The position numbers and the translations under genes were made by a program. From Escherichia phage LQ5, in sequence record OR677401: a DNA stretch of 64,000 bases; one strand, given 5' to 3'. The notes under the pieces were generated by a model. That model was not told the origin of the DNA and ran no database searches. It saw only the letters and a list, made by a program, of their open reading frames with translations. Below are positions 8,491-57,401 of the stretch, piece by piece; the stretch's first letter is position 1; each line of letters starts with the position of its first letter.

Positions 8491-8674
8491 CCCTAAAAAT
8501 AAAGCGGAAATTATTCGACACTGGACTGAAACACGAGTAACTAAATGCCCTATAAAAAGTCAACACAACACCGATAAATGGTATATTGGTGAATATGTTG
8601 AGTATACTTTTATAGATAAAAATAAACGTAAACAGCATGTAGAAGAATATTGCTTAAAGGTGCAATGGTTATGA
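8462..8674 (+). CDS. hypothetical protein
   Basis: ORF 70 aa overlapping macro gene end. Confidence 0.45.
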   Translation: MKAHYPHPFDPKNKAEIIRHWTETRVTKCPIKSQHNTDKWYIGEYVEYTFIDKNKRKQHVEEYCLKVQWL

Positions 8675-8844
8675 GTCTGAGTAAAGAACAGAAAGATAAA
8701 TTGTTTGAGCTTATCCATGAGCTTATGGAACTCAACATAGAATGTGAATTTGATAACTCTCTGGATTGGGATTGGAGAGGTGGTGAAGAGGATGAGTTTT
8801 CTAAAAAGGAAAATGAATTAATTGCTTATGTAAATAGTCTTTAA
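8671..8844 (+). CDS. hypothetical acidic protein
   Basis: ATGA overlap; 57 aa. Confidence 0.5.
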   Translation: MSLSKEQKDKLFELIHELMELNIECEFDNSLDWDWRGGEEDEFSKKENELIAYVNSL

Positions 8845-8853
8845 GAAGGTAAT

Positions 8854-9426
8854 ATGGCTCAACTTTATTTTCATTATGCGGCGATGAATTCCGGGAAAAC
8901 CGCTTCATTGCTAACGGCAGCTCATAACTACAAAGAACGTGGTATGGGCGTACTCCTTTTAAAGCCTGCGATAGACAATAGAGAATCAAGCCATAGCATT
9001 TCGTCTCGTATAGGGATTAGTCAAGAGGCTAATGCCGTGACTCCGGATATGGACCTATACGAGTTCTATCGTTGGGCTGAATCTCAAAAAGATATCCACT
9101 GCGTATTTGTGGATGAAGCACAGTTCTTAGAACCTGCACAGATAAAACAACTGGCAAAGATAGTAGACAATTATAATGTTCCGGTTATGTGCTATGGGCT
9201 AAGAACTGATTTTCAGGGTAAACTGTTTCCTGGCTCTGCTGAATTACTCGCTACGGCAGATAAACTCGTTGAGTACAAAGGTGTGTGCCATTGTGGCCGT
9301 AAAGCTACTATGACTGCTAGGGTCCAGGATGGTATCGCAATTAAGGACGGCGCCCAAGTTTCTATAGGTGGCAACGATTCTTACGTGTCATTGTGCAGGA
9401 AGCACTGGATAGAAATAACGAGTTGA
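8854..9426 (+). CDS. tk: thymidine kinase
   Basis: AAMNSGKTASLL P-loop and CHCGRKA zinc motif; collinear with T4 Tk. Confidence 0.95.
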   Translation: MAQLYFHYAAMNSGKTASLLTAAHNYKERGMGVLLLKPAIDNRESSHSISSRIGISQEANAVTPDMDLYEFYRWAESQKDIHCVFVDEAQFLEPAQIKQLAKIVDNYNVPVMCYGLRTDFQGKLFPGSAELLATADKLVEYKGVCHCGRKATMTARVQDGIAIKDGAQVSIGGNDSYVSLCRKHWIEITS

Positions 9427-9433
9427 GGGTATT

Positions 9434-9712
9434 ATGGACCTAAATTCAAAGATTTTAATTCTAGCGTTCGCTGTGGCTATTTCTTATATTGTTCTTTCGC
9501 CTATCATGGATGATGTGGCTTACAAAAGAGAGATAGAGGTTGTAGCAGCGACGTATAATGCTAATAATAAAGAATGTCCTAATAAAAATGGGATGGATTT
9601 AATTAAAGCGCATTATATGCTTTCCATTACCTCGCCTATACAGAGGAATTGGGTTGAATATAATTTTAACGACGTGTTCTATTCTTATTGTCGTAAGCTT
9701 AAAAAGCTATAA
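9434..9712 (+). CDS. hypothetical membrane protein
   Basis: N-terminal hydrophobic helix ILILAFAVAISYIVLSPI. Confidence 0.6.
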   Translation: MDLNSKILILAFAVAISYIVLSPIMDDVAYKREIEVVAATYNANNKECPNKNGMDLIKAHYMLSITSPIQRNWVEYNFNDVFYSYCRKLKKL

Positions 9713-9715
9713 ATA
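9708..9715 (+). promoter_or_regulatory. possible late promoter TATAAATA
   Basis: exact TATAAATA about 90 nt upstream of the rI-like gene. Confidence 0.35.
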
Positions 9716-9804
9716 ATAATACTAACCGTAGAGCTTTAGCTTTTGGTAATCGCTATCGGTTAAGGCCGAAAGGCAAATAGTATAAAACAACAAAGGACTT
9801 TTGT

Positions 9805-10098
9805 ATGGGTATTTTCCGTACAGCGGCTTGTATCCTTATGGCGGGATGTTTAAGCCCTACAGTTTCACTAGCAAATGGTGCCAATGATAAATTGATGGAT
9901 GCATTTGCTAGTAGTGCGATGCCTGTTTATGCGCAAATGAGTAGACCCAGCGTAAAGGCCTCCGAAGACTATTGGGCCTATGTTACGGCTTCCTGGAAGA
10001 TTTCAAGTTGTCGGACTATAGAAGCGTGTTCAATTGAAGGTCGGGCCATCGGAGAGCGTTATGTAAAACTAATGAAGGTGGAAGATGAAGTTCAATGA
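9805..10098 (+). CDS. rI: lysis-inhibition regulator RI-like (signal-anchored periplasmic protein)
   Basis: 97 aa, N-terminal signal; C-terminal CSIEGRAIGERYVKLMKVE resembles T4 RI as recalled; position next to tk. Confidence 0.5.
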   Translation: MGIFRTAACILMAGCLSPTVSLANGANDKLMDAFASSAMPVYAQMSRPSVKASEDYWAYVTASWKISSCRTIEACSIEGRAIGERYVKLMKVEDEVQ

Positions 10099-10468
10099 TT
10101 TCGTACCCAGTCGAGGGTCTGAAGTGGATTCTTATATTGGTTGGCTACTGGTTTCTTTAGCCTATTTTAAGTCAGCCCATTTAGAAACCAAAAGCTATGC
10201 AAGACACAAAGCGTATGACTTCTATTATGTAGAAGTTCAAGGACCGCTGGACCAATTTAGTGAGCAATATCTTGGATTCAGTGGCAAAGAATATAAAGCA
10301 TCATTACCGTCTGCTTCAGACTTGCCTAAGGACCCGGTAGATTTTCTTGACGAGCTTCTTAAAGCATCTGATAAAATCTATGATACCCTTCCTAAGGCCA
10401 TCCAGTCGACTTTGGACGATATCACTGGCGTCTTTTACCAGACTAAGTATTTGCTGACGTTAGAATAA
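10085..10468 (+). CDS. hypothetical protein
   Basis: ORF 127 aa followed by terminator. Confidence 0.6.
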   Translation: MKFNDFVPSRGSEVDSYIGWLLVSLAYFKSAHLETKSYARHKAYDFYYVEVQGPLDQFSEQYLGFSGKEYKASLPSASDLPKDPVDFLDELLKASDKIYDTLPKAIQSTLDDITGVFYQTKYLLTLE

Positions 10469-10472
10469 TCAA

Positions 10473-10500
10473 AGGTCTCACTTCGGTGGGACCTTTTTTC
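10473..10500 (+). terminator. rho-independent terminator
   Basis: stem ggtctcac/gtgggacc (one G-U), loop ttcg, T-tract. Confidence 0.75.
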
Positions 10501-10508
10501 GTTTAGGT

Positions 10509-10537
10509 GTTTACATCCTCTAGGAACATGATACTAT
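10509..10537 (+). promoter_or_regulatory. T4-type early promoter
   Basis: GTTTAC ... GATACTATA GACCTATCAA. Confidence 0.65.
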
Positions 10538-10565
10538 AGACCTATCAACTAATGAGGAGAACAGT

Positions 10566-10802
10566 ATGAAACTTACAAGTACTACGGTTTCATTAGAATA
10601 TGAAATCAACGGTCGTATCCTTGAGATTAAGATATTCGACGACCGAAGTATCTTCGCTGATTATCGAGGATACAGAATTCGTCTAGAAAAGGACGAGCTC
10701 AAGGAACCGTGGCTCCTTAAAGACACATTAAAGGGTTGTGGATGTAAACTGAAGACTACCCAAGCCCAAGAATTAATTTCTACTATCAACAAATACTGGT
10801 GA
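10566..10802 (+). CDS. hypothetical protein
   Basis: GAGGAGAA before ATG. Confidence 0.6.
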   Translation: MKLTSTTVSLEYEINGRILEIKIFDDRSIFADYRGYRIRLEKDELKEPWLLKDTLKGCGCKLKTTQAQELISTINKYW

Positions 10803-10806
10803 TATT

Positions 10807-10989
10807 ATGTTAACTACTGAACAGATTGAACAAATCCTTAAACTGGCTACTGCTATTGAACGTGATTCTTATGATAGTGCAGTAGAACATTGCGAAGGCT
10901 ATTCATATTCCGCAATAGAGCAGTGTAAACGAGATTTGGATAACTCTAAAGCGGCATTGGTTGAGTATCTTAATGAGTTGAAAGCGTAA
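10807..10989 (+). CDS. hypothetical protein
   Basis: ORF 60 aa. Confidence 0.5.
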   Translation: MLTTEQIEQILKLATAIERDSYDSAVEHCEGYSYSAIEQCKRDLDNSKAALVEYLNELKA

Positions 10990-11110
10990 TGGCTGATGGC
11001 ACAGGAGCCTGAAGATGATTTACTATCTTGAACCTTGGGCTTGGTCAACAATGATTATAGGCCCTATTTTAATCGGTTTATTCTTTTCATGGTTAGTGAG
11101 GAAATTGTAA

Positions 11111-11308
11111 ATGTTATACGATCCAAATGGTTGTTCTGAAGATGGTGTGATTGCCCTTTTAGCAGATGTTGAAGAATCTGACGATGACGTCTTTGTTAAA
11201 GATTGGGAAGAAAAAGGTGGAATTACGCTCCAACAAGAAAATGATATGATTTGTCTGAATGCAGACCAAGTCGAAGAGCTTTATAGTATTTTAAAACATA
11301 ACCGTTGA
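11111..11308 (+). CDS. hypothetical acidic protein
   Basis: GAGG before ATG. Confidence 0.5.
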   Translation: MLYDPNGCSEDGVIALLADVEESDDDVFVKDWEEKGGITLQQENDMICLNADQVEELYSILKHNR

Positions 11309-11318
11309 GGAATAGAAA

Positions 11319-11879
11319 ATGATTATTGAAACAACTGAATTGTTTGGCGAACTGTCCGCTGAAGTAGTTAATAACGCAATTGAGCTTTCACAAGAAGACG
11401 ATAAAATCGTACTGACTATCGCTGATATTAAACCGCTTTATGATTTAATGGTTTTAGATAGACACGATTATCTTAACGGTCGGGCTAGTGCTCCTATCGA
11501 TATCAATGATGATATGTTTGCCTATATCTATAAAAATGAAACCGGGTTTAATCTGGAAAATGGTATTGAATGTCTGAGCATCAGCGATTCTGATAAATTC
11601 TTTGATTGTATTTTCAAACTGTTCCAGGAAGAATGCAAGCCGGAAGTTGAATGGAAAGTCCCTGGCCAAGATGCCGTGATTCGTTCTAGTGAAACCTTTG
11701 AAGGTGATGAAGAAGAACTGAATTATGATACTGAATTAACCGTGTATCAACATCAGGGCCGTGATTTGTTATCCTTGACCCAAAGACACGATGGTGAAAG
11801 TGAAGTGGTATTTACTAAAGACGAACTAAAAGTTTTAGTCTCTTATCTGAACTCTGTTATCCCAACTATGAACTCTTAA
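11319..11879 (+). CDS. hypothetical acidic protein
   Basis: ORF 186 aa. Confidence 0.65.
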   Translation: MIIETTELFGELSAEVVNNAIELSQEDDKIVLTIADIKPLYDLMVLDRHDYLNGRASAPIDINDDMFAYIYKNETGFNLENGIECLSISDSDKFFDCIFKLFQEECKPEVEWKVPGQDAVIRSSETFEGDEEELNYDTELTVYQHQGRDLLSLTQRHDGESEVVFTKDELKVLVSYLNSVIPTMNS

Positions 11880-11889
11880 GGAAAATATT

Positions 11890-12348
11890 ATGATTATGAT
11901 TATCAATGCAAACTCTTGGCACGCTAAACTTCATGACCGTTTTTATGACAGTCATTCTCGACCGCACTCTTTATGTGCTTACTTCTGGAAAATGGTTTGG
12001 GCTTGTTTTGCTTGTGCTGTTGTTGCAGGTAGTACGCTTTTTGGATTAACTGTTGCAGGTGTTGGTGTATTAGAGCATTTCTTTGTATTAAGTACCCCTG
12101 TTCTGTTGAGTCTAGGGTTTGTTTTAGGATTGGTTGCAATAGCTCTTATTATTGCGCTATCCATTGGTTTGGCATTCGGTGTGATGAATTTACACGCATG
12201 GTATGATGCCCGTAGAGAAGAAAAGGAATGGCAACGTATTCAAGCTGAGCGTGAAGGCCGAGAAACTAAAGAAAATATCGTTATTCAATACATTAAAGCT
12301 CGTAAATCTAAGGTCTGTCCGGTAATCCACTTCGAGGACAAAGAATGA
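11890..12348 (+). CDS. hypothetical membrane protein
   Basis: three to four hydrophobic helices. Confidence 0.6.
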   Translation: MIMIINANSWHAKLHDRFYDSHSRPHSLCAYFWKMVWACFACAVVAGSTLFGLTVAGVGVLEHFFVLSTPVLLSLGFVLGLVAIALIIALSIGLAFGVMNLHAWYDARREEKEWQRIQAEREGRETKENIVIQYIKARKSKVCPVIHFEDKE

Positions 12349-13355
12349 GAACAGTTATGAAAGGCTACTTCGGTAGCCACCTTTATGGAACAAGTACTCC
12401 AGAATCTGATGTTGATTTTAAAGAAATCTTTGTTCCACATCCGCGTGATATTCTGTTAGGTACGGCTATGAACCATACCAACCTGAATACGAATAACACT
12501 GCTTCCAAAAACACTAAAGATGATGTTGACCACGAGCTTTACAGTCTGAAATATTTCTTTAAACTGGCTGCTGAAGGCGAAACCGTTGCTCTGGATATGC
12601 TCCACACTCCACCTGAAATGGTGGTTAAATCTGATTTACCTGATGTATGGAAATTTATCCAAGACAATCGTTCACGGTTCTATACAACCAACATGAAAGC
12701 CTATTTAGGGTACGTCCGTAAGCAAGCTTCTAAATATGGTGTTAAAGGTTCTCGTCTGGCTGCTCTGCGTGGTGTACTGGCAATCGTTAACCAGATTCCT
12801 GAACAGTGGGTTGACTATCAAGAAGGAATCCCTGATAGACTTCGTCGTACTAAGGTAGAAGATATCAAACACAGACTCCCTGAAAATGAGTTCTGTGAAT
12901 GGGTATTCCATAACCATGAGAAAACAGGCCCTCAAACGTTCTATACTGTTCTAGGACGTAAGTACCAAACTACTTTGTCTTTAATCGAGCTCAAGCAATC
13001 TCTGAATAAGCTTGATGCTGAATATGGCGAACGTGCTCGTAAGGCTGAAGCTAATGAAGGTATCGATTGGAAAGCTCTGAGCCATGCTTATCGGGCTGGA
13101 TATCAATTGTTGGAAATCTACCAAACAGGCGACCTGGTATTCCCATTGCGCGAAGCCTCTATCATTAAGCTGATTAAGGCCGGTGAACTTCCATTTAAAG
13201 AGGTCCAAGAACTTCTTGAAGACACTGTTGACCTGGTTGAAGTCCTGGCCCTGCAAGCCGCTAAGAACGGTATGCCTGCTAAGGTAGATATGAAGTTCTG
13301 GGACAAGTTTGTTGAAGAGGTATACCTTGACAACCACAACTCTTATTATCGATAA
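12345..13355 (+). CDS. predicted nucleotidyltransferase-fold protein
   Basis: N-terminal GSHLYGTSTPESDVDFKEIF resembles the G-S...D.D nucleotidyltransferase signature. Confidence 0.5.
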   Translation: MRTVMKGYFGSHLYGTSTPESDVDFKEIFVPHPRDILLGTAMNHTNLNTNNTASKNTKDDVDHELYSLKYFFKLAAEGETVALDMLHTPPEMVVKSDLPDVWKFIQDNRSRFYTTNMKAYLGYVRKQASKYGVKGSRLAALRGVLAIVNQIPEQWVDYQEGIPDRLRRTKVEDIKHRLPENEFCEWVFHNHEKTGPQTFYTVLGRKYQTTLSLIELKQSLNKLDAEYGERARKAEANEGIDWKALSHAYRAGYQLLEIYQTGDLVFPLREASIIKLIKAGELPFKEVQELLEDTVDLVEVLALQAAKNGMPAKVDMKFWDKFVEEVYLDNHNSYYR

Positions 13356-13362
13356 CGAAGAA

Positions 13363-13551
13363 ATGAAGGTCTTTTTATCATATGGAAGACCCCATAAAAC
13401 CCGACGTTGGTATCTTGAAGCTGTCTGTAAAGAAACCGGACGTCGAGTCAATATCAAGTACGTGTGCAAACCTACGCCTAAACAGACAAGACAATTTGTT
13501 AACTGGGCTATAAATGATATACGCTTCCATAATTTTTGGAGCGCAATTTAG
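13363..13551 (+). CDS. hypothetical basic protein
   Basis: ORF ending inside terminator stem. Confidence 0.45.
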   Translation: MKVFLSYGRPHKTRRWYLEAVCKETGRRVNIKYVCKPTPKQTRQFVNWAINDIRFHNFWSAI

Positions 13552-13573
13552 GAACCTTCGGGTTCCTTTTTTG
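13551..13573 (+). terminator. rho-independent terminator
   Basis: ggaacc-ttcg-ggttcc then T6. Confidence 0.85.
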
Positions 13574-13591
13574 GGTTTAGTGCAAAAAAGA

Positions 13592-13620
13592 GTTTACACC
13601 TTCGTAGAGCATGTTATTAT
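13592..13620 (+). promoter_or_regulatory. T4-type early promoter
   Basis: GTTTAC ... GTTATTATGGACCTATCAA; leader gagtgaaatggagaatataatg duplicated at 361-384. Confidence 0.6.
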
Positions 13621-13657
13621 GGACCTATCAAATCTACTGAGTGAAATGGAGAATATA

Positions 13658-14638
13658 ATGTTAACTATCAAAATCAACAAAGGTATCTATCGCGGTAATG
13701 TAATCTCTGGTACGTTCATGAGTTCAGGTAAAACCTGGTTCCCTAATAAAATTCATGAATCCGAAGCTCACCTCGGTGATGGCAAGGTATTCGTACAGAT
13801 TGATGGTGTTGAACGTGGTGTATGGGTATTCAAATGTGATATCGAAACCGAAGGCGCACCAGCTCCTGCAATGGTTACTGAATCCGCTGAAGAAATGAAA
13901 CACCGTATCAACAAACGTTTTAAAGTAATGAACATGATGACTAACGGAATCATCGATGGTAAAATTCGTTCCCTTATAATCTCTGGTGCCGCAGGTATTG
14001 GTAAAACATATTCTTTGGATAAAGCATTACAGAATGCCCACGAAAATGAAACTATCGAATATAAATCAATCAACGGAAAGATTAGTGGAATCGGTCTTTA
14101 CGAGCAGCTTTGGAATAACCGCGGCCCTAATAGTGTTCTTCTTATTGATGATGTTGATGTATTCTCTGATATGGATATCCTGAACCTGTTAAAAGCAGCA
14201 TTGGATACTGGTGAAAAACGTAAGGTGTGCTGGAGCACTTCAAGTTCTTATCTTGATGATAAAAATATCGATAAAGAATTTGAGTATGAAGGCACCATCG
14301 TGTTCATCACCAACGTTGATATTGACCGTGAATTAGAGCGTGGAACTAAACTTGCTCCACACCTCCAGGCTTTAGTATCGCGTTCAGTTTACTTAGACCT
14401 CGGAGTTCACTCGAACGAAGAGATTATGGTTCGTGTTGAAGACGTTATCCTGTCCACTGATATGATGCAAAACCGTGGTCTGACTGATGCCGAGACTTAC
14501 CAAGCTTTAGCATGGATGAAGGCTAATGTATCTCGTCTTCGTAACGTATCATTACGTACAGCTCTTTATCTGGCGGACTTCATTGCCACCGATAAAAATG
14601 ACTGGAGCGAAATCGCTGAAGTTACACTTCTGAAATAA
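13658..14638 (+). CDS. AAA-type ATPase
   Basis: Walker A GAAGIGKTYSL, Walker B-like VLLIDDVD. Confidence 0.7.
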   Translation: MLTIKINKGIYRGNVISGTFMSSGKTWFPNKIHESEAHLGDGKVFVQIDGVERGVWVFKCDIETEGAPAPAMVTESAEEMKHRINKRFKVMNMMTNGIIDGKIRSLIISGAAGIGKTYSLDKALQNAHENETIEYKSINGKISGIGLYEQLWNNRGPNSVLLIDDVDVFSDMDILNLLKAALDTGEKRKVCWSTSSSYLDDKNIDKEFEYEGTIVFITNVDIDRELERGTKLAPHLQALVSRSVYLDLGVHSNEEIMVRVEDVILSTDMMQNRGLTDAETYQALAWMKANVSRLRNVSLRTALYLADFIATDKNDWSEIAEVTLLK

Positions 14639-14647
14639 GGGTGAATT

Positions 14648-14989
14648 ATGTTTGAACAATTTATTTACAATCTTTATAACGCAGGTCAGACTTTTTCCAA
14701 AGCTATGAAACAGTCTGTTGAAGACTATACTAATGAATGTAGTACTAAGTTTTCTGAGAAATTCTATAAAAATCCGTGTAGTGGAGGAGACTTCAGGAGA
14801 CTGCGCTTGGCCGTTAACACCCAGGCCTTAATAAATCTAGACCGCAAGCAGGTAAAGTTGGCAGGCGACTTCCGAGATGAACTCTGCGCCATCAGGAATG
14901 AATATCGCATTCGTATTGAACACCAACGGAAAGAGAACACTCAATCCGCATGGTTTAGTGGTCAAGCCGGTGAAAAAAGTTTCTATTAG
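14648..14989 (+). CDS. hypothetical protein
   Basis: ORF 113 aa. Confidence 0.55.
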   Translation: MFEQFIYNLYNAGQTFSKAMKQSVEDYTNECSTKFSEKFYKNPCSGGDFRRLRLAVNTQALINLDRKQVKLAGDFRDELCAIRNEYRIRIEHQRKENTQSAWFSGQAGEKSFY

Positions 14990-14991
14990 TT

Positions 14992-15020
14992 GTTTACATC
15001 TCCGGTAGAAATGATACTAT
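14992..15020 (+). promoter_or_regulatory. T4-type early promoter with SD-sequestering inverted repeat (covarying arms)
   Basis: arms atctccggtag (14998-15008) and ctactggaggt (15032-15042) pair fully when two G-U wobbles are allowed. Confidence 0.7.
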
Positions 15021-15046
15021 AGACCTATCAACTACTGGAGGTTATC

Positions 15047-15571
15047 ATGAACGCTAAAGATATTTTTTCACTGATTAATTTTAATAATGGTAATTTCAAA
15101 TCTGAAAAACAAAGCAAGTTCTTTAACGACGTTGCTTGCGGTAATGAGATTACCGTATCTGGAGGAGAGATTTACAAAAGCCGTTGGAACTGGATTGCTG
15201 TCATCGATTCAGTCGGTATTGTAGAGCTCTATAAAAACACTAACAAAAAACGTACTCTTCACTGGAGTCGTGAAACCAACCAAGCTTATCAAGCTGAACG
15301 TAACAAACGTTTAATGCCTACCGAATCCGACCTGGCAAACGTTAAATCTGATATCGCTTATTTCGATAATCTGATTGCTGAACAACAAGCTGTTATTGAT
15401 AAGTTTGACGAAATCAAAGCTTGTAAAGAGATTCCTGAATTCATGCGGGAATCAGTAAACGAACAGTACGCCCTCACTTCAGGTCGTATCGAGCAGTACA
15501 AATCACAACGAGCTGAACGCCAAGCTCTGCTTCAGAAATTTGAAGAGCGTTTAAAGACGGTTCTCGCATAA
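15047..15571 (+). CDS. hypothetical protein
   Basis: ORF 174 aa. Confidence 0.65.
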   Translation: MNAKDIFSLINFNNGNFKSEKQSKFFNDVACGNEITVSGGEIYKSRWNWIAVIDSVGIVELYKNTNKKRTLHWSRETNQAYQAERNKRLMPTESDLANVKSDIAYFDNLIAEQQAVIDKFDEIKACKEIPEFMRESVNEQYALTSGRIEQYKSQRAERQALLQKFEERLKTVLA

Positions 15572-15634
15572 ACGCTTTATACCAAGGATGGTATAATGGT
15601 TCTAGGTTCTTAATTACTTACTGAGGAAATTATT

Positions 15635-16477
15635 ATGTCACAGGCAATTAATCAAATTCGTTCTGAAGTTAAAAAAGTTGTTAAATTTGGTCGTATTCCG
15701 AGTTCTAAAGAAGTGGTTGAAAAGGTTCTATATATGATGTGGGACAAGTTCAACGTTTGTACTGTTAAAGATGACTTCACTAAAATCTTTGACAAGACCA
15801 GGTCGTTTACCTTAGAAGACCGGGTCATGAAAACTCTTCGTAAAACAGGTATGTTGTCTCGTGCTAATGCCAAAATTATTCTTAAAAATTATAACAAAGG
15901 CTACGACCTCTATGGTCGTTTAATCCAGGCGATGTCATTTGACGAAGTGGTTCAAGACCTTCATGCCAACCAACGACGTCTACTAGCACTAGGTGCTCGC
16001 CTTGCAAAAGGTCAAGATAAACAAATGACCTTTAAGACCAATGGTTCAGGCGATTGGATTATCTTTAATATTGTTAACCACCCCGGAAATGAAAATGAGT
16101 ATACCATTTCAACTTTTAGTGGTTGTCAATATGACAACTGGAAGTTCCATCTCCGATTAGCCTTGTCCGAATTAGAACAGCACGGTGTTCTTAGTTTTGG
16201 TGATGCCGAAACTGGGGTGGGTCAGCGTATTAAACTTTATAAAATTAAAGACCTGGCTGAAGAGCATTCAGAACAAGCTCCTAAACCGGAACCTGTGCCA
16301 GTGCGCAGCAATGAGAAGCATCAAGCCCAGATTGAGTATTTTAGCAATTTGCTTACTTGCTTGAATGTTACAATTCAACAACAAGATGATGAGATTTTCC
16401 GACTCTCTGGTCTGAATGCCAAAGCCAAGGCTGAACGTCAAAAATATATCGATATCCTAAATCTTCTTAAGGATTAA
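15635..16477 (+). CDS. hypothetical protein
   Basis: ORF 280 aa; leader tgaggaaattattatg. Confidence 0.65.
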   Translation: MSQAINQIRSEVKKVVKFGRIPSSKEVVEKVLYMMWDKFNVCTVKDDFTKIFDKTRSFTLEDRVMKTLRKTGMLSRANAKIILKNYNKGYDLYGRLIQAMSFDEVVQDLHANQRRLLALGARLAKGQDKQMTFKTNGSGDWIIFNIVNHPGNENEYTISTFSGCQYDNWKFHLRLALSELEQHGVLSFGDAETGVGQRIKLYKIKDLAEEHSEQAPKPEPVPVRSNEKHQAQIEYFSNLLTCLNVTIQQQDDEIFRLSGLNAKAKAERQKYIDILNLLKD

Positions 16478-16479
16478 TT

Positions 16480-16695
16480 ATGGAAATTATTGGTTTTATT
16501 CTTGCTTATCTTGTGATAGGATTTATTACTGCTTTGATTGCGCATAAAACAGGCGCGTGGAACCCGGTTAAAATTGAATCAAGCTATGATGCGGTATTCA
16601 TTACATTTGTATGGCCAGTATTTTGCTTTGCCTGGTTATGTATGCTAATTCTGTGGCCTATCGCTAAACTCTATGAAAAATTATTTGGACTCTGA
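16480..16695 (+). CDS. small membrane protein
   Basis: two hydrophobic helices. Confidence 0.55.
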   Translation: MEIIGFILAYLVIGFITALIAHKTGAWNPVKIESSYDAVFITFVWPVFCFAWLCMLILWPIAKLYEKLFGL

Positions 16696-16696
16696 T

Positions 16697-17566
16697 ATGA
16701 ACATTAAAACACGTAAAGAATATTCCATCTATGACCATGACACGACTCGTCGTATCGCTATCGATCGGCTGGCAGACTTTGGCCATATTTGTAATGGTAA
16801 TTATACTTATGGTGTAGGTCGTAAAGGGACTTATATTAGTTCTTTGAACGATTATTGCCGTTGCCCTGCTCATTTATTTGGTGCAACACTGCGAGCTAAT
16901 ATCAAAGACCTCTTGGCTACCGCAGGACGTATTTCTACGGTTCCTGTCAATATCAAGAATATTAATTTTACGGCTCGTAACCTAGTCATTAATATTCTGC
17001 CTGACGGTATTCAAGTTCGTTTCCGTCCTACCTCAAAAGGTAATAAGGCCCTTCGTGAAGCATTCGAAACCTTATTCAGAGAGGCAATGACCCGTATTAA
17101 GGCAGTAGAATCATATAAAGTTACAACCGATGAATATGCTGATTGTTTTGAGCGGGCTGATGCAGTGTATTTTAATGTTAAACTAACTCGTGAATATCTT
17201 TTGTCTTATGCCCCTTATCAATCCCAACAAAAGGACCCACAAATGGAACGTCGTATCTCTGCAGTATCATGTGACAGTGTAGGCCAGTATGCGGCCTATG
17301 ACAAATTCAAAACCACTGCTGTACCAAGCCCATTCAATTCCGAACCGTATCATTGGAAAATTAAACCCGAGAATTCTTTGGTGGTTACTAACCCTACGAT
17401 GAAACCTATCGAGAAGTATCATGAGGACCACCTCCAGGAATCAATCCACCGTTTAAACGGCCAGATCGAAGATGAGAAAAAGAGTATCCAAGACGTATTG
17501 ATTCGCATCAAGAACATGGAACTCCAGCGTGACAAGCTCCGCGCGGCAGTATTAGCTCTAAAATAA
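16697..17566 (+). CDS. hypothetical protein
   Basis: ORF 289 aa from ATG 16697. Confidence 0.65.
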   Translation: MNIKTRKEYSIYDHDTTRRIAIDRLADFGHICNGNYTYGVGRKGTYISSLNDYCRCPAHLFGATLRANIKDLLATAGRISTVPVNIKNINFTARNLVINILPDGIQVRFRPTSKGNKALREAFETLFREAMTRIKAVESYKVTTDEYADCFERADAVYFNVKLTREYLLSYAPYQSQQKDPQMERRISAVSCDSVGQYAAYDKFKTTAVPSPFNSEPYHWKIKPENSLVVTNPTMKPIEKYHEDHLQESIHRLNGQIEDEKKSIQDVLIRIKNMELQRDKLRAAVLALK

Positions 17567-17567
17567 T

Positions 17568-17597
17568 GTTTACATCCAAGGATGGATGGAGTATAAT
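17568..17597 (+). promoter_or_regulatory. sigma70-like early promoter
   Basis: GTTTAC, 18-nt spacer, TATAAT. Confidence 0.55.
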
Positions 17598-17623
17598 CTT
17601 TTAAATCTACTGAGGAGAATATC

Positions 17624-18634
17624 ATGACTCGTACTGAATACATCAATGCCTTTACTACGTATATCACTACCAACACCCCTCCGTTAACCCCATACGAGGT
17701 AATAGTTTCTAATATCAATAAATGGGTCGACCAAATTGATGATGCATTATCGCGCTGTTTCAAAGCTGAAATCGAAAAGATTGCAGGCCGTTTGTGCATT
17801 CATGATATCATTAAAACATTTAAAGGTTCTCGACTGCTTTCGCGCCTGGTCAATAAGGACATCCTTTCTGAGTTCGGTAAAGAGAAATACCCAGGTTCCA
17901 ACCGTGTTGTTAACTACAAATGGTTTGGTGATACCATAAAAGGTTATATCAAAATTAAAGGTATGGACCCTAATAGTTTATTTCCGCAACGTTGGGTTAG
18001 CGAATTCAAGGCTAACTCTGCATTAATTCTCAAAGCGGCCTCTAAAACTATAGTTTCCGGTGATTGTCGTACTATTCACCCGATGGCTAATTGCATGATT
18101 AAAACAAATAGTTATAAAGGAAAAGCTATTATTTCTGTTATTTGGTCACCTAATAGGAAACCTAAAGATGATGCGGAAGTTGTAAAGTATCAAGATATTG
18201 CTTACGATACCTTGAATACTATCGAACAAGCTTTAGCTCTGATGGATACCGTAGAGAAATATGAGACCCAAGAAGTTAAACACCACTTAGGCTGGAAAGG
18301 ATATGAAGTCTTAGTAACAGTCCGTGAAATCAAATGTACCGTTCCAAAAACTGATGCTGAAATTTACCAAGAAAAATGTGAGGAAATTGTGAACACTGAT
18401 AAAGAGCCTGCTACATTAGAAGATTTGATTAACGACTTGAACAGCCCTATCATGGCCCCTACACCAATTACTAAATCCAAGTTACCAGAAGTCGTTGCCT
18501 TGGAAAAAGCGTATAAAGACGCCCTTGCTATCAACAAAAAACTGACTGGCCAATATACCGCCGCCAAGAAACTTTGGGAAGAGTCTACCAATCGTTTAGA
18601 CCGTCTTGAACAGGCTCTGGAGCTGCTGAAATGA
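17624..18634 (+). CDS. hypothetical protein
   Basis: ORF 336 aa; GAGGAGAA before ATG. Confidence 0.7.
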   Translation: MTRTEYINAFTTYITTNTPPLTPYEVIVSNINKWVDQIDDALSRCFKAEIEKIAGRLCIHDIIKTFKGSRLLSRLVNKDILSEFGKEKYPGSNRVVNYKWFGDTIKGYIKIKGMDPNSLFPQRWVSEFKANSALILKAASKTIVSGDCRTIHPMANCMIKTNSYKGKAIISVIWSPNRKPKDDAEVVKYQDIAYDTLNTIEQALALMDTVEKYETQEVKHHLGWKGYEVLVTVREIKCTVPKTDAEIYQEKCEEIVNTDKEPATLEDLINDLNSPIMAPTPITKSKLPEVVALEKAYKDALAINKKLTGQYTAAKKLWEESTNRLDRLEQALELLK

Positions 18635-18852
18635 AATACCAATTAGCTGAAGATATTGACCAAACTATTCCTGATTGGAATGCCATTATTAAAATTGTCG
18701 AACGTCGTGAAAAAGCTTCTAAGAACGTTCCGAACTGTCCGGAATGTGGAACTGAACAGGTTCAATTGGTCCATTGGCAGACTAGTAATCTTCGTTACAA
18801 ATGCCGCCATTGTAAACATAAATTTGAGCGAGAAGAAAATGGCAAAGCGTAA
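18631..18852 (+). CDS. zinc-ribbon protein
   Basis: CPECG ... CRHCKH. Confidence 0.55.
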
Positions 18853-19075
18853 AGAATATGTAGAGGCTGCCGATAAGGCAGTCCGCGAACTTACTCTAGC
18901 TTATTATAAAGAGCACGGTAAATTTCCGGACAGTTATTCAGTATTGAAATCTGCTTTAACTCGCTCGTATAATAATATACTATCTGATGTGTATAATTTA
19001 AAATATGAGCACATGGAAAAATACGGAACAGAACTCGACCGTTCTGAAGCATTCAAACAAATATTAGGAATTTAA
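18839..19075 (+). CDS. hypothetical protein
   Basis: ATG 18839, out of frame with and overlapping previous ORF by 14 nt. Confidence 0.5.
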
Positions 19076-19076
19076 A

Positions 19077-19340
19077 ATGTTTAAAGTTTATGGTTATGAT
19101 TCAAATATTCACCGTTGTGTTTTCTGTGATAATGCCAAACGACTGCTTGAGGTTAAGAAACAACCTTACGAATTCATTAACGTGATGCCTGAAAAAGGTG
19201 TGTTTGATGATGAGAAGATTGCCGAACTCCTGGCTGCTCTTGGACGCGAATCTCAGGTAGGTTTGACTATGCCTCAGGTATTTGCTCCGGACGGAACTTC
19301 TATTGGTGGCTTTGACCAACTGCGAGCTTATTTCAAATGA
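19077..19340 (+). CDS. nrdC: thioredoxin/glutaredoxin NrdC
   Basis: 87 aa, CVFCDNAK active site; collinear with T4 NrdC as recalled. Confidence 0.9.
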   Translation: MFKVYGYDSNIHRCVFCDNAKRLLEVKKQPYEFINVMPEKGVFDDEKIAELLAALGRESQVGLTMPQVFAPDGTSIGGFDQLRAYFK

Positions 19341-19498
19341 TTGAATTAATGTTGGTTGTTTTGTATCTTATCATCGGTATTGGTTATGCTAAGACCCTAG
19401 CTAAATTAGATGATTCAGGTGACTTTTGTTCATGGCTGACGTCTATGATTTGTTGGCCTTTATTTCTGGTTGGTGCTTCATTCTGGAACTTCAAATGA
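19337..19498 (+). CDS. small hydrophobic protein (53 aa)
   Basis: ATGA-coupled to nrdC; below the 60-aa ORF-track cut-off. Confidence 0.45.
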   Translation: MIELMLVVLYLIIGIGYAKTLAKLDDSGDFCSWLTSMICWPLFLVGASFWNFK

Positions 19499-19683
19499 CT
19501 GAATTTGATACAGCTTATGGAACCTGCGCAAGAGAGTTTACAAGTGAGTTTGATACTCCTGCGCCTAGTAAAGAAACCGTATTGGCAAATCTCCCGGATT
19601 GGTTAAAAGAAGAAGCCAACGAATGGGGCTGGACTGATACTTGTGTACGTGACCAGCTATTTGAATTTATGGTGGAATTATGA
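19495..19683 (+). CDS. hypothetical acidic protein
   Basis: ATGA coupling. Confidence 0.5.
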   Translation: MTEFDTAYGTCAREFTSEFDTPAPSKETVLANLPDWLKEEANEWGWTDTCVRDQLFEFMVEL

Positions 19684-19988
19684 TTGAATTAAACGAACAA
19701 ACCATTTTTCTAGGTGATGGTACCGAAGATGACCTAGAGTATAAACTATACGAATATATGGTTTGGCTGGCTAAAGCAGAAGGTGTAGACTTTGCTGTAG
19801 CTCATCCATATGGCGAGAACACCGTTGTAATCGGTGGCACTGCTTATGAAGTCCAATGGCAATACGTTGGCCTTGAATCTGAAGAATTTGAAGAAGATGA
19901 ACACGGTGATTGGCATCCAGTCGGTCCTTGGTACTGGGAACACGGTGAACCTGATTTTGAAGTAAGTAGTTGGTGGTGTGACAGTTAA
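19680..19988 (+). CDS. hypothetical acidic protein
   Basis: ORF 102 aa. Confidence 0.55.
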   Translation: MIELNEQTIFLGDGTEDDLEYKLYEYMVWLAKAEGVDFAVAHPYGENTVVIGGTAYEVQWQYVGLESEEFEEDEHGDWHPVGPWYWEHGEPDFEVSSWWCDS

Positions 19989-20034
19989 GCCATGGTATGT
20001 CGCTCGGTGGAAAACTACCGAGCCAGAGGAACCT

Positions 20035-22371: not shown

Positions 22372-22400
22372 GTTTACTTCCTCTCCTCACGTGTTATAGT
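22372..22400 (+). promoter_or_regulatory. T4-type early promoter with SD-sequestering inverted repeat
   Basis: arms tcctcacgtgtt (22384-22395) and aacacatgagga (22411-22422). Confidence 0.6.
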
Positions 22401-22429
22401 CTATCCTATCAACACATGAGGAGAACATT

Positions 22430-22612
22430 ATGACTATCCAAGATAAAGAAATTAAAGCCGACCAGTATTATTTGGTAAATGGGCGTGCGGTTCGTGTAAT
22501 TGCTGCTAGCGATTCAGACGTATGGTACCGTGTACTAGACCATAGAAATATTCCATTGATGGTATGTGACCGTAGTTTGTTTTGTTCGATAGCTAAGGAA
22601 ATTAAATTATGA
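22430..22612 (+). CDS. hypothetical protein
   Basis: GAGGAGAA before ATG. Confidence 0.55.
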   Translation: MTIQDKEIKADQYYLVNGRAVRVIAASDSDVWYRVLDHRNIPLMVCDRSLFCSIAKEIKL

Positions 22613-23166: not shown

Positions 23167-23379
23167 ATGAATCCACAATCTTTATTGTCACAACGTATTG
23201 CTGAAGAACGTCGTCAATTCTTTGAAAATATGAGAGCCCAAGGTATTGATGACGAACGTTTTCTAATTTGGTTTTGGGACCACAAGCACTCAAGCTGCTC
23301 CGGTGCTTTGTTACTTTCCGCTGGAATGATGTACGAAGGCTGGAAAGGTGCATTAAAATATAAATTGAAACAGCAATAA
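23167..23379 (+). CDS. hypothetical protein
   Basis: GAGGAAAA before ATG 23167. Confidence 0.5.
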   Translation: MNPQSLLSQRIAEERRQFFENMRAQGIDDERFLIWFWDHKHSSCSGALLLSAGMMYEGWKGALKYKLKQQ

Positions 23380-23408
23380 TTTACAAACTCTTGGGACCAG
23401 AGTATAAT
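23380..23408 (+). promoter_or_regulatory. sigma70-like promoter with -10 inside a palindrome
   Basis: TTTACA, 17-nt spacer, TATAAT; inverted repeat tgggacca (23392-23399) / tggtccca (23408-23415). Confidence 0.5.
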
Positions 23409-23447
23409 GGTCCCACGGATTATAAATTTTTAACTGAGGAAATTATT

Positions 23448-23777
23448 ATGTCACAAGCTATTAAAAACGTACTGAACTCTTTCGCTTTCGATAAAGTAAA
23501 CGAACTGATGAATACCGGTTTTGTGACTCCTGAAATTCTTGACCAATGGGTTGCTGAACTGCTGCCAATCATGCACTCTAAAGACCAGAAAATTGGTAAG
23601 AACGGTATTCGTGAAATCCTGGTTCAATATATCCTTGATGAATTCGATGTCGCTGCCTTTGGTGTAGAATCTAAAGCTTGGGCCCCTGGTGAAATCACGG
23701 ATAAAACCATCCGTCGTATGAAAAACCAACGTAAGAAAAAATTCGTTGACCTGAAAATTGTTAAGGCAGCGAAATGA
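23448..23777 (+). CDS. hypothetical protein
   Basis: leader tgaggaaattattatg identical to the 15635 gene leader. Confidence 0.6.
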   Translation: MSQAIKNVLNSFAFDKVNELMNTGFVTPEILDQWVAELLPIMHSKDQKIGKNGIREILVQYILDEFDVAAFGVESKAWAPGEITDKTIRRMKNQRKKKFVDLKIVKAAK

Positions 23778-43298: not shown

Positions 43299-44722
43299 AA
43301 ACTATTTTGGCTCAACTGCTAGGCAATAGTGATTATTTCACTAAGGTCTGGCCTTATATGAATGATTCTTATTTTGACCAGGGTCCTGCAAAGACCCTTT
43401 TCAAAGAAATTAAAAAACATGTCAATGAATATAATGCAGTGCCTTCTAAGAACGCATTGAGCATTGCATTAGATAACAGTACGCTTTCAGAAGTTGAACA
43501 CCAAGGCGCTAAAGAGCTTTTAAGTTCGCTGAATGCCGGACCTGAAGACCAAGAATGGTTGGTTAAAGAGACGGAGAAATACGTTCAGAAAGCAGCGATG
43601 TATAATGCAACTTCAAAAATCATTGAAATCCAAACTAATGCCGACCTTCCGGTTGAGCAACAAAATAGAAAACTTCCAGGTATTGGTGCTATTCCGGATA
43701 TCATGCGTGATGCATTATCGATTTGTTTCGATTCTGAATTAGGTCATGACTGGATGGATGACTATGAAGAACGATTCAAAAGTTATTCCGATAAAGCACG
43801 TAAGGTTCCATTCCGTCTTAATATTCTGAATAAGATTACCAAGGGTGGTGCTGAGTTTGGTACTGAAAACGTATTGTTGGCAGGAACAAACGTAGGTAAG
43901 TCTCTTGGTCTTTGTTCATTGGCTGCTGATTACCTTCAATCTGGTTACGATGTTCTTTATATCTCCATGGAGATGGCAGAGGAAGTATGTGCTAAGCGTA
44001 TCGATGCCAACCTTCTGGACGTGTCGCTGGATGATATCGATGATGGTCACGTCTCGTGGCCTGAATATAAAGCTAAGATGGATAAATGGCGTTCAACTGC
44101 TACTTTAGGTCGTTTAAAGATTAAACAGTATCCTACTGGCGGTGCTAATGCCGATACATTCCGTGCATTATTAAACGAATACAAGCTCAAACAAAACTTT
44201 GTCCCACAGGTCGTTATCGTTGACTACTTGGCTATCTGTGCATCGTCTCGTACGAAAGTTTTCTCTGAAAACAGTTACGGATTGATTAAGATGGTTGCTG
44301 AAGAACTACGTGGACTTGCAGTAGAGAAGAAATTACTGTTGTGGACTGCAGCCCAGACTACTCGTGGTGCGAACGTTGCAGCCGAAATCGATATGGCCGA
44401 TATTGCTGAATCCTTTGGTATTGCACATACTGCAGACTTCATGTTGGGTGTGGTCGAGACAGAAGAGTTCGCTCAGATGGGTATGCAGATGGTTAAGCAG
44501 CTTAAATCTCGTTATGGTGATAAGAGCTACTACAACAAATTTAAGATTGGTGTTAAGAAAGGAAATCAACGTTGGTATGAAGTTGAAGACGATTCCAACC
44601 CAGGTCCAGTGAACACGGTACGTGAGGCTACAGGTGAGATGAATCGCCAAGCCGAGGTCAATCGACAGACGCGTGTTAATAGAAGTGATTTGGACGATTT
44701 AGCAGCATCTATCAAATTTTAA
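43283..44722 (+). CDS. 41: replicative DNA helicase gp41 (DnaB-like)
   Basis: Walker A GTNVGKSLGL; collinear with T4 gp41. Confidence 0.95.
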   Translation: MVEVVETILAQLLGNSDYFTKVWPYMNDSYFDQGPAKTLFKEIKKHVNEYNAVPSKNALSIALDNSTLSEVEHQGAKELLSSLNAGPEDQEWLVKETEKYVQKAAMYNATSKIIEIQTNADLPVEQQNRKLPGIGAIPDIMRDALSICFDSELGHDWMDDYEERFKSYSDKARKVPFRLNILNKITKGGAEFGTENVLLAGTNVGKSLGLCSLAADYLQSGYDVLYISMEMAEEVCAKRIDANLLDVSLDDIDDGHVSWPEYKAKMDKWRSTATLGRLKIKQYPTGGANADTFRALLNEYKLKQNFVPQVVIVDYLAICASSRTKVFSENSYGLIKMVAEELRGLAVEKKLLLWTAAQTTRGANVAAEIDMADIAESFGIAHTADFMLGVVETEEFAQMGMQMVKQLKSRYGDKSYYNKFKIGVKKGNQRWYEVEDDSNPGPVNTVREATGEMNRQAEVNRQTRVNRSDLDDLAASIKF

Positions 44723-44748
44723 GGAGCTTCGGCTCCTTTTTTGTTTTT
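44722..44748 (+). terminator. rho-independent terminator
   Basis: ggagc-ttcg-gctcc then T-tract. Confidence 0.85.
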
Positions 44749-44752
44749 AAGG

Positions 44753-44782
44753 GTTTACATCTCCTGTAGGCGTGATACTATA
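44753..44782 (+). promoter_or_regulatory. T4-type early promoter
   Basis: GTTTAC atctcctgtag ... GATACTATA. Confidence 0.7.
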
Positions 44783-44805
44783 GACCTATCAACTTGGAGA
44801 ACAAA

Positions 44806-45123
44806 ATGAAAACCATCGACTGTAAAGCAGAATATAAAGTGTATTATCACGGAAGTTGTAGTGTTGCTAATATCGGTAATATGCTTTGTCCTCCTGAGGA
44901 GACAGGAGTTCTGTCTGAAACCGGTCGTAAGAAAAACCTAAATCGTGTGTTCTTTACTGAAGATATCGGTTTGGCTAAGATTTATGCTGGACGTGCAGCT
45001 CGTTCAGTGGGAGGAGAACCCCGTCTTTATCGTGTAATTGCTCCGGTGGATGTGGTTTGTTTAAATGATACTAAAGGCGCTACGGTTTATCATGCTGAAT
45101 GGGCCTTCTGCGAGGAAATCTAA
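44806..45123 (+). CDS. hypothetical protein
   Basis: GGAGAA before ATG 44806. Confidence 0.6.
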   Translation: MKTIDCKAEYKVYYHGSCSVANIGNMLCPPEETGVLSETGRKKNLNRVFFTEDIGLAKIYAGRAARSVGGEPRLYRVIAPVDVVCLNDTKGATVYHAEWAFCEEI

Positions 45124-49840: not shown

Positions 49841-49868
49841 AAGGAACCTTCGGGTTCCTTTTTTGGTT
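49841..49868 (+). terminator. rho-independent terminator
   Basis: ggaacc-ttcg-ggttcc then T-tract. Confidence 0.85.
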
Positions 49869-51486: not shown

Positions 51487-51515
51487 TTTTACACCTCCTC
51501 CCTTCATGTTATAAT
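51487..51515 (+). promoter_or_regulatory. sigma70-like promoter followed by SD hairpin
   Basis: TTTTAC ... TATAAT; hairpin atgacctc (51514-51521) / gaggtcat (51532-51539). Confidence 0.45.
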
Positions 51516-51539
51516 GACCTCTAAATCACTGGAGGTCAT

Positions 51540-52109
51540 ATGAACATCGAACAAAAATGTCTTTATCAAGACCGAATCAATTCCAAATTCTCAAAACACG
51601 AACAGAATCTTTTAGAAAAATGTCTGGATGCTAAAAAAGACCCTAACTTCCATTACGACCTTGACAAACTGGTTCGCAAGCATGTTACTTCAGCGGTTCC
51701 AGTAGAGTTGTATCGTGGGATTACCACCAGAGAACTTGAGCAATTAGAGCTCCTTTCAGTAGGGTGTCAATGGTCTCCTGGTCGAGTTACTTCTTTTAGT
51801 ACACAATACTCACAGGCTCGTCAGTTCGCAGGGGCATGGGAATATGGAACCAGAACCATTTTAAGTCTCAGGAATGCACCGTTCATTTTCGACTACTATA
51901 ACCATGCTATCGACCTTGTTCTTGCAGGGAATGTAGATGAGCTTGAAATAGATGAAACCCGTATAGACCTCTACGATATGGTCGAAACTGAATGTGAGTT
52001 CATGGTCTCCAGCCAATCACGATTTGAGATTGTGGAAATCGAAACTATCAAAAGGGACCCGTACGAAATCGAGTACAAAACAATTCATTTAAAAATGTTG
52101 GATTTTTAG
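51540..52109 (+). CDS. modB: Mod-type ADP-ribosyltransferase (ModB-like)
   Basis: R-S-E-type pattern: VELYRGIT, SFST, acidic C-terminal region; position after soc. Confidence 0.5.
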   Translation: MNIEQKCLYQDRINSKFSKHEQNLLEKCLDAKKDPNFHYDLDKLVRKHVTSAVPVELYRGITTRELEQLELLSVGCQWSPGRVTSFSTQYSQARQFAGAWEYGTRTILSLRNAPFIFDYYNHAIDLVLAGNVDELEIDETRIDLYDMVETECEFMVSSQSRFEIVEIETIKRDPYEIEYKTIHLKMLDF

Positions 52110-56217: not shown

Positions 56218-56246
56218 GTTTACTTCTCCTCATGACATGATATTAT
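56218..56246 (+). promoter_or_regulatory. T4-type early promoter with SD-sequestering inverted repeat
   Basis: arms ttctcctcatg (56224-56234) and catgaggagaa (56259-56269), perfect 11 bp. Confidence 0.7.
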
Positions 56247-56273
56247 CTACCCTATCAACATGAGGAGAACAAA

Positions 56274-56783
56274 ATGAAAATTTATCGAGTGGAGTCATCG
56301 TTCAGTATCTTAGATAACAGCGATGTTATAGCAATCACTCACCAACAGTGCCGCCAATTAACACCGTATAGAGGCTCGTTTGATGAATGGAGCGAAGGTT
56401 GGTTATTAGAAGTAGGTTTCGACAAACCTAATTTTAGACACCACCATACCAATAATAAAAATATTCCACTACCAGGTCAAGACAAGTTGTTGGTGGAAAA
56501 TTCTAATAAAACCATTCGAACTAAGTGGAACCAGCCTGATTATGAAGGCTGTGATGATTATATTCCAGGTTGGTTTGTTAATCTCTACCATTTTGCTTTT
56601 GCCAGTGAGTATGATATGATGCGCTGGTTCACTCGTGAAGAGCGTGAAGAATTATCTTCTAAAGGATTCTATCTTGCCGTTTACGAAATCCCTGAAGATG
56701 AGGTTGTCATTGGTGGCCGCCAAGTAATGTTCCGCAAATCCCATGCTGAACTCGTAGATTTTATTGAATTGAGAACAATATGA
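56274..56783 (+). CDS. hypothetical protein
   Basis: ORF 169 aa. Confidence 0.65.
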   Translation: MKIYRVESSFSILDNSDVIAITHQQCRQLTPYRGSFDEWSEGWLLEVGFDKPNFRHHHTNNKNIPLPGQDKLLVENSNKTIRTKWNQPDYEGCDDYIPGWFVNLYHFAFASEYDMMRWFTREEREELSSKGFYLAVYEIPEDEVVIGGRQVMFRKSHAELVDFIELRTI

Positions 56784-57359: not shown

Positions 57360-57401
57360 GGCTCTCATGGAGAATAAACTTATTAACCAAGAGAGAAAAT
57401 T

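Follow-up and report, generated by a model that had tools for sequence, protein, structure and literature searches.

An early promoter enclosed by a hairpin that takes in the Shine-Dalgarno sequence in Escherichia phage LQ5, and selection on the complementarity of its arms

The stretch of DNA analysed here (hereafter the window) comprises 64,000 nucleotides (nt) of Escherichia phage LQ5, sequence record OR677401, and the element of interest is a short cassette at positions 14992-15049 that lies between two genes, the downstream one of which is referred to as the 15047 gene after the position of its ATG (Table 1). The closest Megablast match was phage QL01 (98.9%; Dhakavirus, T4-type myovirus), and, judged from annotated relatives, the window spans the early region e - denV - regB - tk - nrdC.x - 49 - 55 - 47 - 46 - 45 - 43 - uvsX - 41 - 61. 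The genes near the cassette are all encoded on the plus strand. The cassette, whose length was taken as 58 base pairs (bp), wholly occupies the 57 nt intergenic gap from the upstream stop codon (14987-14989) to the ATG at 15047, and it can be read directly from the sequence as a T4-type early promoter within an 11-bp hairpin: GTTTAC-N17-TACTAT is present with a TG upstream of the -10, and a gene begins just downstream on the same strand. A scan of the whole window against Rfam at the gathering threshold returned no matches.

The preliminary description of this locus had reported that the arms atctccggtag and ctactggaggt, upstream of the 15047 gene, pair at every position if two G-U wobbles are allowed, and the sequence bears this out. 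All 11 arm positions are paired, nine as Watson-Crick pairs and two as wobbles (T14999.G15041 and G15004.T15036), around a loop of 23 nt, within which an inner helix of 5 bp joins TGATA of the extended -10 (15012-15016) to TATCA (15026-15030). The 3' arm contains the Shine-Dalgarno sequence (SD) of the 15047 gene, and the 5' arm lies wholly 5' of the -10 and hence upstream of the predicted start site of the cassette's own transcript, an A at approximately 15027 that is placed, from consensus spacing, 7 nt 3' of the -10. Folded as plus-strand RNA, the element reaches -17.6 kcal/mol with a z score of -3.5, a value equalled by none of 200 shuffles, whereas it is not significant as minus-strand RNA (z -1.4) or with DNA parameters on either strand (z -1.5 for the plus strand and -0.1 for the minus strand).

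The window contains further cassettes of this kind. Matches to GTTTAC-N17-TAnnnT number 13 against 1.1 expected, 12 of them on the plus strand, and looser rules yield approximately 21 early-promoter cassettes with an SD and a start codon at the 3' side in the 64 kb. For window cassettes we computed the cost of opening the SD on read-through RNA and on RNA starting 7 nt after the -10, the latter representing transcription from the cassette's own promoter. In the 14992 cassette the cost is 13.0 kcal/mol on read-through RNA and 2.0 kcal/mol on own-start RNA, and across the cassettes at 3791, 6602, 14992, 22372, 51487 and 56218 it ranges from 10.7 to 16.4 kcal/mol versus 1.4 to 2.3 kcal/mol, respectively; for the other nine window cassettes the corresponding ranges are 1.5-5.2 and 0.3-3.0 kcal/mol. 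The earlier statement that related cassettes at 22384-22422 and 56224-56269 keep the anti-SD logic with different arm sequences was correct, as the promoter spacer pairs with the SD in both the 22372 cassette (with one C.A mismatch) and the 56218 cassette. Read-through RNA must cross the 14992 cassette because the previous early promoter lies at 13592 and no terminator follows it before the cassette; no plus-strand terminator-like site was found between 13568 and 16766.

Selection acts on the complementarity of the promoter-spacer arm to the SD arm. Loci were gathered by protein (a pattern scan of IMG/VR gave only 12 stretches), and de-duplication on a full-cassette key left 239 distinct cassettes from T4-type phages. 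In an alignment-free test on these 239, the duplex between the pre-start segment and the cassette's own SD averaged -8.59 kcal/mol, versus -6.44 kcal/mol for non-cognate combinations. With one representative per cluster, the comparison of own with cross pairing gave z -10.3 at 129 clusters, -5.5 at 66 and -3.4 at 31, and at the 31-cluster level at most 7 of 2000 permutations were as good as own pairing. A second test used 40 unique arm pairs of class A, the geometry in which the 5' arm starts directly after the -35, and anchored them only on the CTCC and GGAG cores. Paired cells made up 86.1% versus 70.4% after shuffling, two-sided changed cells numbered 73 versus 30.2, and the covariation score was 0.384 versus 0.143; none of 500 shuffles reached the observed pairing, two-sided-change or covariation values, the sequences being related so that shuffle counts are not to be read as probabilities. 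Sliding the partner arm by 1-3 columns, a control that preserves relatedness, lowered pairing to 41-50% and scores to 0.06-0.11, and two-sided changes were present at all seven variable stem pairs of the 40 arm pairs; a separate count gave a concordant result. In a haplotype test, 10 of 25 arm-tetramer haplotypes were fully complementary to their own partner, as against 1.2% of 255 non-cognate combinations, and there are approximately eight unrelated arm types, each complementary to its own partner. Since other functions fix the -35, the -10 and the SD core, it would be paired changes at the flanking arm positions that keep the hairpin. RNAalifold returned no structure for 48 cassettes in a plain MAFFT alignment, because the arms fall in different columns (spacers are of 17 or 18 nt and linkers vary in length). 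Single-linkage grouping of the arm haplotypes was also tried and dropped, as a compensatory change counts as two differences and all paired types merged.

Comparison with the closest relatives shows how the individual arms have changed. Relative to the arms at 3797/3831, both arms of the 14992 cassette differ, as had been noted: position 7 of the 5' arm has gone from T to G, and in the 3' arm position 5 from A to T and position 10 from A to G. The further claim that these changes are compensatory and keep the hairpin intact survives in part. Orthologous cassettes in QL01, E33, IME281, IME341, dhabil and others have the 5' arm atctccAgtag, with an A-U pair opposite the T of the 3' arm, and because close relatives carry A-U there, the G.U of the window represents one A to G transition that has been tolerated. 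The only true double change, set against the denV cassette, replaces U-A by A-U; it is genuine, but older. Throughout the 14992 orthologue group the outer U.G does not vary, and uncompensated mismatches exist in other members of the family. Across the closest cassette family approximately 3 of 7 arm changes keep pairing, and the minor-allele fraction is 0.05-0.06 in the arms versus 0.25 at four adjacent free spacer positions. The Dhakavirus orthologues of the 15047 gene retain the cassette.

Pairing of the SD to a promoter segment recurs before denV in 39 T4-type contigs, and before regB in many, with arm sequences that are unrelated to one another (for example tgtag/ctaca, gtttg/caaac, ttttagt/actaaaa, tctagttg/caactaga, tgtaagt/acttaca, tcttg/caaga and ccaag/cttgg). 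In addition to class A there is a second geometry, class B, in which the 5' arm covers the last bases of the -10 and approximately the next 7 nt. Of the 97 cassettes with an upstream-paired SD (helices of 7 bp or more), 66 have the 5' arm entirely before +7, and in a further 18 its end falls at +7 to +9. Phage T4 itself has the architecture at both genes: the arms at T4 regB are ttttcctcttgactg and cagttaagaggagaa, and the T4 denV cassette is identical to that of the window at 48 of 50 positions. We rejected this identity as a sign of special conservation, since the flanking denV DNA is 91% identical.

Table 1. Coordinates of the 14992 cassette, its flanking genes and further cassettes in the window
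Feature	Positions	Strand	Remarks
Upstream gene, 113 amino acids	14648-14989	+	From the list of open reading frames (ORFs); stop ends 2 nt 5' of the -35
-35 hexamer GTTTAC of T4-type early (sigma-70) promoter	14992-14997	+	Invariant across the cassette family
5' arm atctccggtag	14998-15008	+	Anti-SD, contains CTCC; first 11 nt of the -35/-10 spacer
Extended -10	15012-15020	+	TG 15012-15013; TACTAT 15015-15020
Linker agacctatcaa	15021-15031	+	Holds the recurrent CTATCAAC motif; near-invariant in the cassette family
3' arm ctactggaggt	15032-15042	+	Includes SD GGAGG (15037-15041); from sequence and fold
Downstream (15047) gene, 174 amino acids, nrdC-region ORF, PHROG 2274, function unknown	15047-15571	+	ATG 15047; from the ORF list and orthologues
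denV sister cassette	3791-3849	+	atctcctgtag 3797-3807 / ctacaggagat 3831-3841; perfect 11 bp
regB sister cassette	6602-6661	+	Arms are those of the denV cassette
Cassette with shifted, longer arms	22372-22432	+	tctcctcacgtgt 22382-22394 / acacatgaggaga 22412-22424; 13 bp, one C.A mismatch
Class B cassette	51487-51542	+	5' arm atgacctc over the -10 end and start-site region; pairs ggaggtcat on the SD
Cassette with perfect 11 bp	56218-56276	+	ttctcctcatg 56224-56234 / catgaggagaa 56259-56269; SD fits the RegB/S1 consensus GGAGAACAAAA

An experimentally established precedent for a promoter inside an SD-masking hairpin is provided by the T4 genes e, soc, 49 and I-TevI, in which long transcripts mask the SD and the promoter within the hairpin gives rise to a translatable RNA (McPheeters et al. 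1986 and later work, reviewed in PMC3014915). The cassettes described here share with these genes an SD that is buried on long transcripts and a proximal promoter whose RNA, given the predicted start, would lack the 5' strand of the hairpin. They differ in that the embedded promoter is of the early sigma-70 type (GTTTAC-N17-TGnTAnnnT) and not a gp55 late promoter, in that the 5' arm of class A falls within the -35/-10 spacer and that of class B straddles the -10/+1 junction, and in that the design is a repeated cassette found at many genes; moreover, the gating would here limit translation to the early period or to the gene's own promoter instead of delaying it until late. The late motif TATAAATA was not found in the 14992 cassette, and within the window it occurs only at 2564, 9708, 46870 and 49564. 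The classic late-promoter hairpin of gene e (lysozyme, ATG 2594) is present at 2564-2596: its arm aatacctcct (2568-2577), paired to aggaggtatt (2584-2593) on the SD, is overlapped by TATAAATA (2564-2571). This hairpin provides an internal positive control.

The interpretation that we lean towards, with modest confidence, is an early-promoter version of this late-gene trick, in which read-through RNA masks the SD and RNA from the cassette's own promoter, being without the 5' arm, is translated. Polymerase at the cassette promoter would start at approximately 15027, within the loop, and make a transcript that lacks the 5' arm; its SD would be free, the 15047 gene would be translated, and the GGAG would also be open to the phage nuclease RegB. 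RNA that started further upstream would carry both arms and form the 11-bp helix, leaving the SD masked and the gene silent, and the untranslated stretch on such RNA may favour Rho-dependent attenuation. Each gene so equipped would be translated only from its own early promoter and would thus be insulated from upstream transcription, with its synthesis confined to the first minutes, and its own transcripts would be both translated and quickly inactivated by RegB while read-through RNA stays silent. RNA secondary structure has been reported to block RegB. The RegB/S1 consensus GGAGRAYARAA occurs in SDs of early cassettes exactly at 372, 44796 and 56264 and with one mismatch at 3836, 10556, 13648 and 52154, in every case on the plus strand and 10-11 nt before an ATG. 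The cassettes share with T4 early promoters and RegB sites a GTTTAC -35, an extended -10 and a GGAG SD followed by an A-rich tract, which fits GGAGRAYARAA at several cassettes, and as in T4, regB itself lies 3' of such a cassette.

The relationship of the hairpins to intrinsic terminators bears on the same interpretation. Using a strict definition of an intrinsic terminator (a liberal one let in weak false positives), we found a strong anti-SD hairpin after a terminator in 0 of 27 cassettes versus 52 of 208 otherwise (p = 0.001), and no anti-SD hairpin was itself called terminator-like. Hairpins that are not terminators, and that are not found where a terminator precedes, fit an insulating role. 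Tentatively, this could be extended across the Tevenvirinae, where an anti-SD arm in the early-promoter spacer or at the -10/+1 junction may act as a general modular translational insulator that allows translation from the gene's own promoter only, substitutes for a terminator where genes abut, joins RegB in closing the early window and travels with the shuffled gene.

We would like to note several points that weigh against this interpretation. The start site in this phage is a prediction from consensus spacing, and what a phage would gain by keeping early genes silent on read-through RNA is not readily apparent. Since many early cassettes lack an SD-masking hairpin, the design is optional, and a second hairpin type at 316-382, 23379-23450, 57331-57404 and 57966-58028 leaves the SD out altogether: its 5' arm is in the promoter spacer and its 3' arm directly after the -10, with the -10 in the loop, an arrangement (-10 enclosed, SD free) that resembles published subclasses of the promoter-early stem-loop (PeSL) cassettes considered below. 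Mismatches persist in the family, including a U-C pair in JS98 (atctccAttag), a G.A in the denV cassette of dhabil and the C.A of the window's 22372 cassette. Furthermore, for 13 of the 97 hairpins with an upstream-paired SD, part or all of the structure falls within the own transcript as predicted, and the mutual exclusion of terminator and hairpin becomes borderline when counted by cluster (0 of 18 versus 20 of 112, p = 0.07).

PeSL cassettes have been described in T4-type phages (Arbiol et al. 2010, PMC2839356; Comeau et al. 2014, PMC4122927), and that work reported promoter activity, a strong reduction of downstream lacZ expression by one stem-loop and recombination between cassettes. The present cassettes resemble PeSLs in consisting of a short intergenic strong early promoter with a promoter-overlapping stem-loop and an SD and start codon at the 3' end, and likewise in occurring in many copies, at gene-replacement boundaries and as partial (half) cassettes; in the window and its relatives this is seen in the approximately 21 cassettes, the halves at 3088 and 44753 and the swapped cassette in distant orthologues. 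The published stem-loops are compact (Gn-loop-Cn in RB49 and phi1, or stems just upstream of the promoter in PST and T4), stand apart from the SD and were taken to terminate or attenuate transcription, whereas here the 3' arm is the SD and a loop of 21-25 nt holds the -10 and the start site. Translation, ribosomes and compensatory change have no occurrences in the two PeSL papers (PMC2839356, PMC4122927).

On a rival view, the 14992 element might be a PeSL-type transcription attenuator and recombination module, with the overlap of the SD a by-product of the very short intergenic space. We consider this unlikely, while recognising that the published promoter activity, lacZ reduction and cassette recombination (PMC2839356, PMC4122927) all speak for it, as do the half cassettes (3088 and 44753), in which the 5' arm survives, and the different cassette in distant orthologues of the 15047 gene; the mutual exclusion of terminator and hairpin fits it too. 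Against it, no U-run follows the 14992 stem, and in a terminator scan of positions 1-20000 the hairpins at 14998-15042, 3797-3841 and 6608-6652 were not called, their tails being A-rich. Dozens of unrelated arm families have a 3' arm whose centre falls on the SD core, and the hairpins that enclose only the -10 show that an SD-free design is possible. Homology for recombination, in turn, needs no complementarity between the two arms.

A role in RNA processing or stability is improbable. The hairpin would then shield the GGAG from RegB or RNase E/G on long RNA, or serve as a protective 3' hairpin for the upstream message, and in keeping with this the SDs are of the GGAG type, several fit the 11-nt RegB/S1 consensus, RegB is inhibited by structure and a hairpin precedes regB in many phages. 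A masked SD would nevertheless stop the 30S subunit as well as RegB, so that the protected message would be untranslatable, and no evidence of processing sites was found at the cassette. Such protection is largely a companion effect of SD masking on read-through RNA.

Less probable again is an inverted repeat that acts at the DNA level, as a cruciform or single-strand hairpin modulating promoter melting, replication or recombination. The preliminary description had taken the covariation as an argument that RNA structure and not DNA sequence is selected, and here the outcome is divided. Covariation shows that complementarity is selected, and not in which molecule. A first count of G.U versus A.C pairs on minimum free energy helices (37:5) was rejected, as folding rules allow a helix to continue across G.U but stop it at A.C; when isolated mismatches between Watson-Crick pairs were counted in a strand-symmetric way, the result was 5:5, and then, on a larger set, 6 G.U (G.T in DNA) to 6 A.C, which also counts against an RNA-level interpretation. 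The family-wide wobble evidence for a constraint on RNA is thus null, and the choice between RNA and DNA is not settled statistically. Perfect cassettes moreover fold equally well as DNA and on both strands; the 3791 cassette folds well in all four cases (DNA z -6.7 and -5.9). What speaks for RNA is the context: the 3' arm is in every case the SD, an RNA-level feature; the 5' arm does not run past the predicted start; the loop is of 21-25 nt; and the 14992 hairpin is significant only as plus-strand RNA and not as DNA on either strand. The arm sequences also vary freely and so offer no fixed site for a protein, and an arm separation of 21-25 nt is unfavourable for cruciform extrusion.

Translational coupling, in which ribosomes finishing the upstream gene would open the hairpin on read-through RNA, is very doubtful. 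As coupling would favour, only 1-4 nt separate the upstream stop codon from the -35 in five of the six hairpin cassettes; the -35 hexamer, however, sets the stop 8-13 nt from the arm, and at 3791 the gap before the -35 is 24 nt. Given the footprint of a ribosome, one that terminates there would reach at most the first 1-2 pairs of the helix. That there is no selection on pairing at all, the cassettes being recent copies of one palindromic ancestor and the covariation shared descent plus chance, was already disfavoured and is hardly credible: the cassettes at 3791, 6602, 14992, 44753 and 3088 are obviously paralogous, only about 3 of 7 arm changes keep pairing and RNAalifold gave a null result, but the approximately eight unrelated self-complementary arm types, the 41-50% pairing of slid registers and the survival of the signal down to 31 clusters all contradict it.

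Masking of the SD by an arm within an early promoter appears to be undescribed in the literature searched. Reviews of T4 transcription and post-transcriptional control, including the 2010 review (PMC3014915), do not mention it for early promoters and list SD-masking hairpins for late-promoter genes and homing endonucleases alone, and an anti-SD arm encoded in the spacer is not described in the searchable literature on T4 early promoters and RegB sites. The search did not extend to the older T4 literature and the 2003 genome review, and a prior mention may exist there. If SD masking on read-through RNA is correct, the classic T4 late-gene trick would extend to a class of early genes that includes T4 regB and denV. 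It would also account for the conservation of some early-promoter spacers, and would give the mobile PeSL cassettes a translational function that makes shuffled genes autonomous in expression. The element is widespread and present in T4, and at approximately 58 bp it would be a natural insulator against read-through that could be reused in synthetic constructs.

Several minor observations concern the same cassettes. There are 17 occurrences of CTATCAAC in the window (2.3 expected), 15 of them on the plus strand, and the motif sits just 3' of predicted early starts; its sites include 3824, 6635, 10542, 15025, 22406, 44786 and 56252, and its TATCA is the segment that pairs with the extended -10 TGATA in the 5-bp inner helix. 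In the half cassettes at 3088-3172 and 44753-44808 the 5' half is kept, including the arm atctcct(g/a)tag, and the 3' half is unrelated at 3088 and degenerate at 44753 (cttggagaa), which would fit the kind of recombination within the loop that has been proposed for PeSLs. G+C-rich intrinsic terminators with a UUCG tetraloop and a T-run are present at 10471-10496, 13550-13567, 44721-44738, 49841-49860 and 61185-61198. These five sit 8-24 nt 5' of early promoters, and all five of the cassettes that they precede are weakly SD-masked and lie 30-40 nt from the upstream stop codon.

Among more distant relatives, orthologues of the 15047 gene with 76% protein identity have an unrelated cassette approximately 75 nt upstream, with a GTGTAC -35 and a hairpin tatggg(g)a / (t)tcccata around the -10; the cassette has thus been replaced while the gene was kept. 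In jumbo T4-related contigs (L053-L059, 345-378 kb), a TTGAC -35 is located inside a G/C-rich hairpin approximately 75 nt upstream of denV, and the hairpin is followed by a T-run, e.g. gggTTGACttcggtcagccc-tttt. This overlap of terminator and promoter corresponds to the original PeSL type and not to the anti-SD design.

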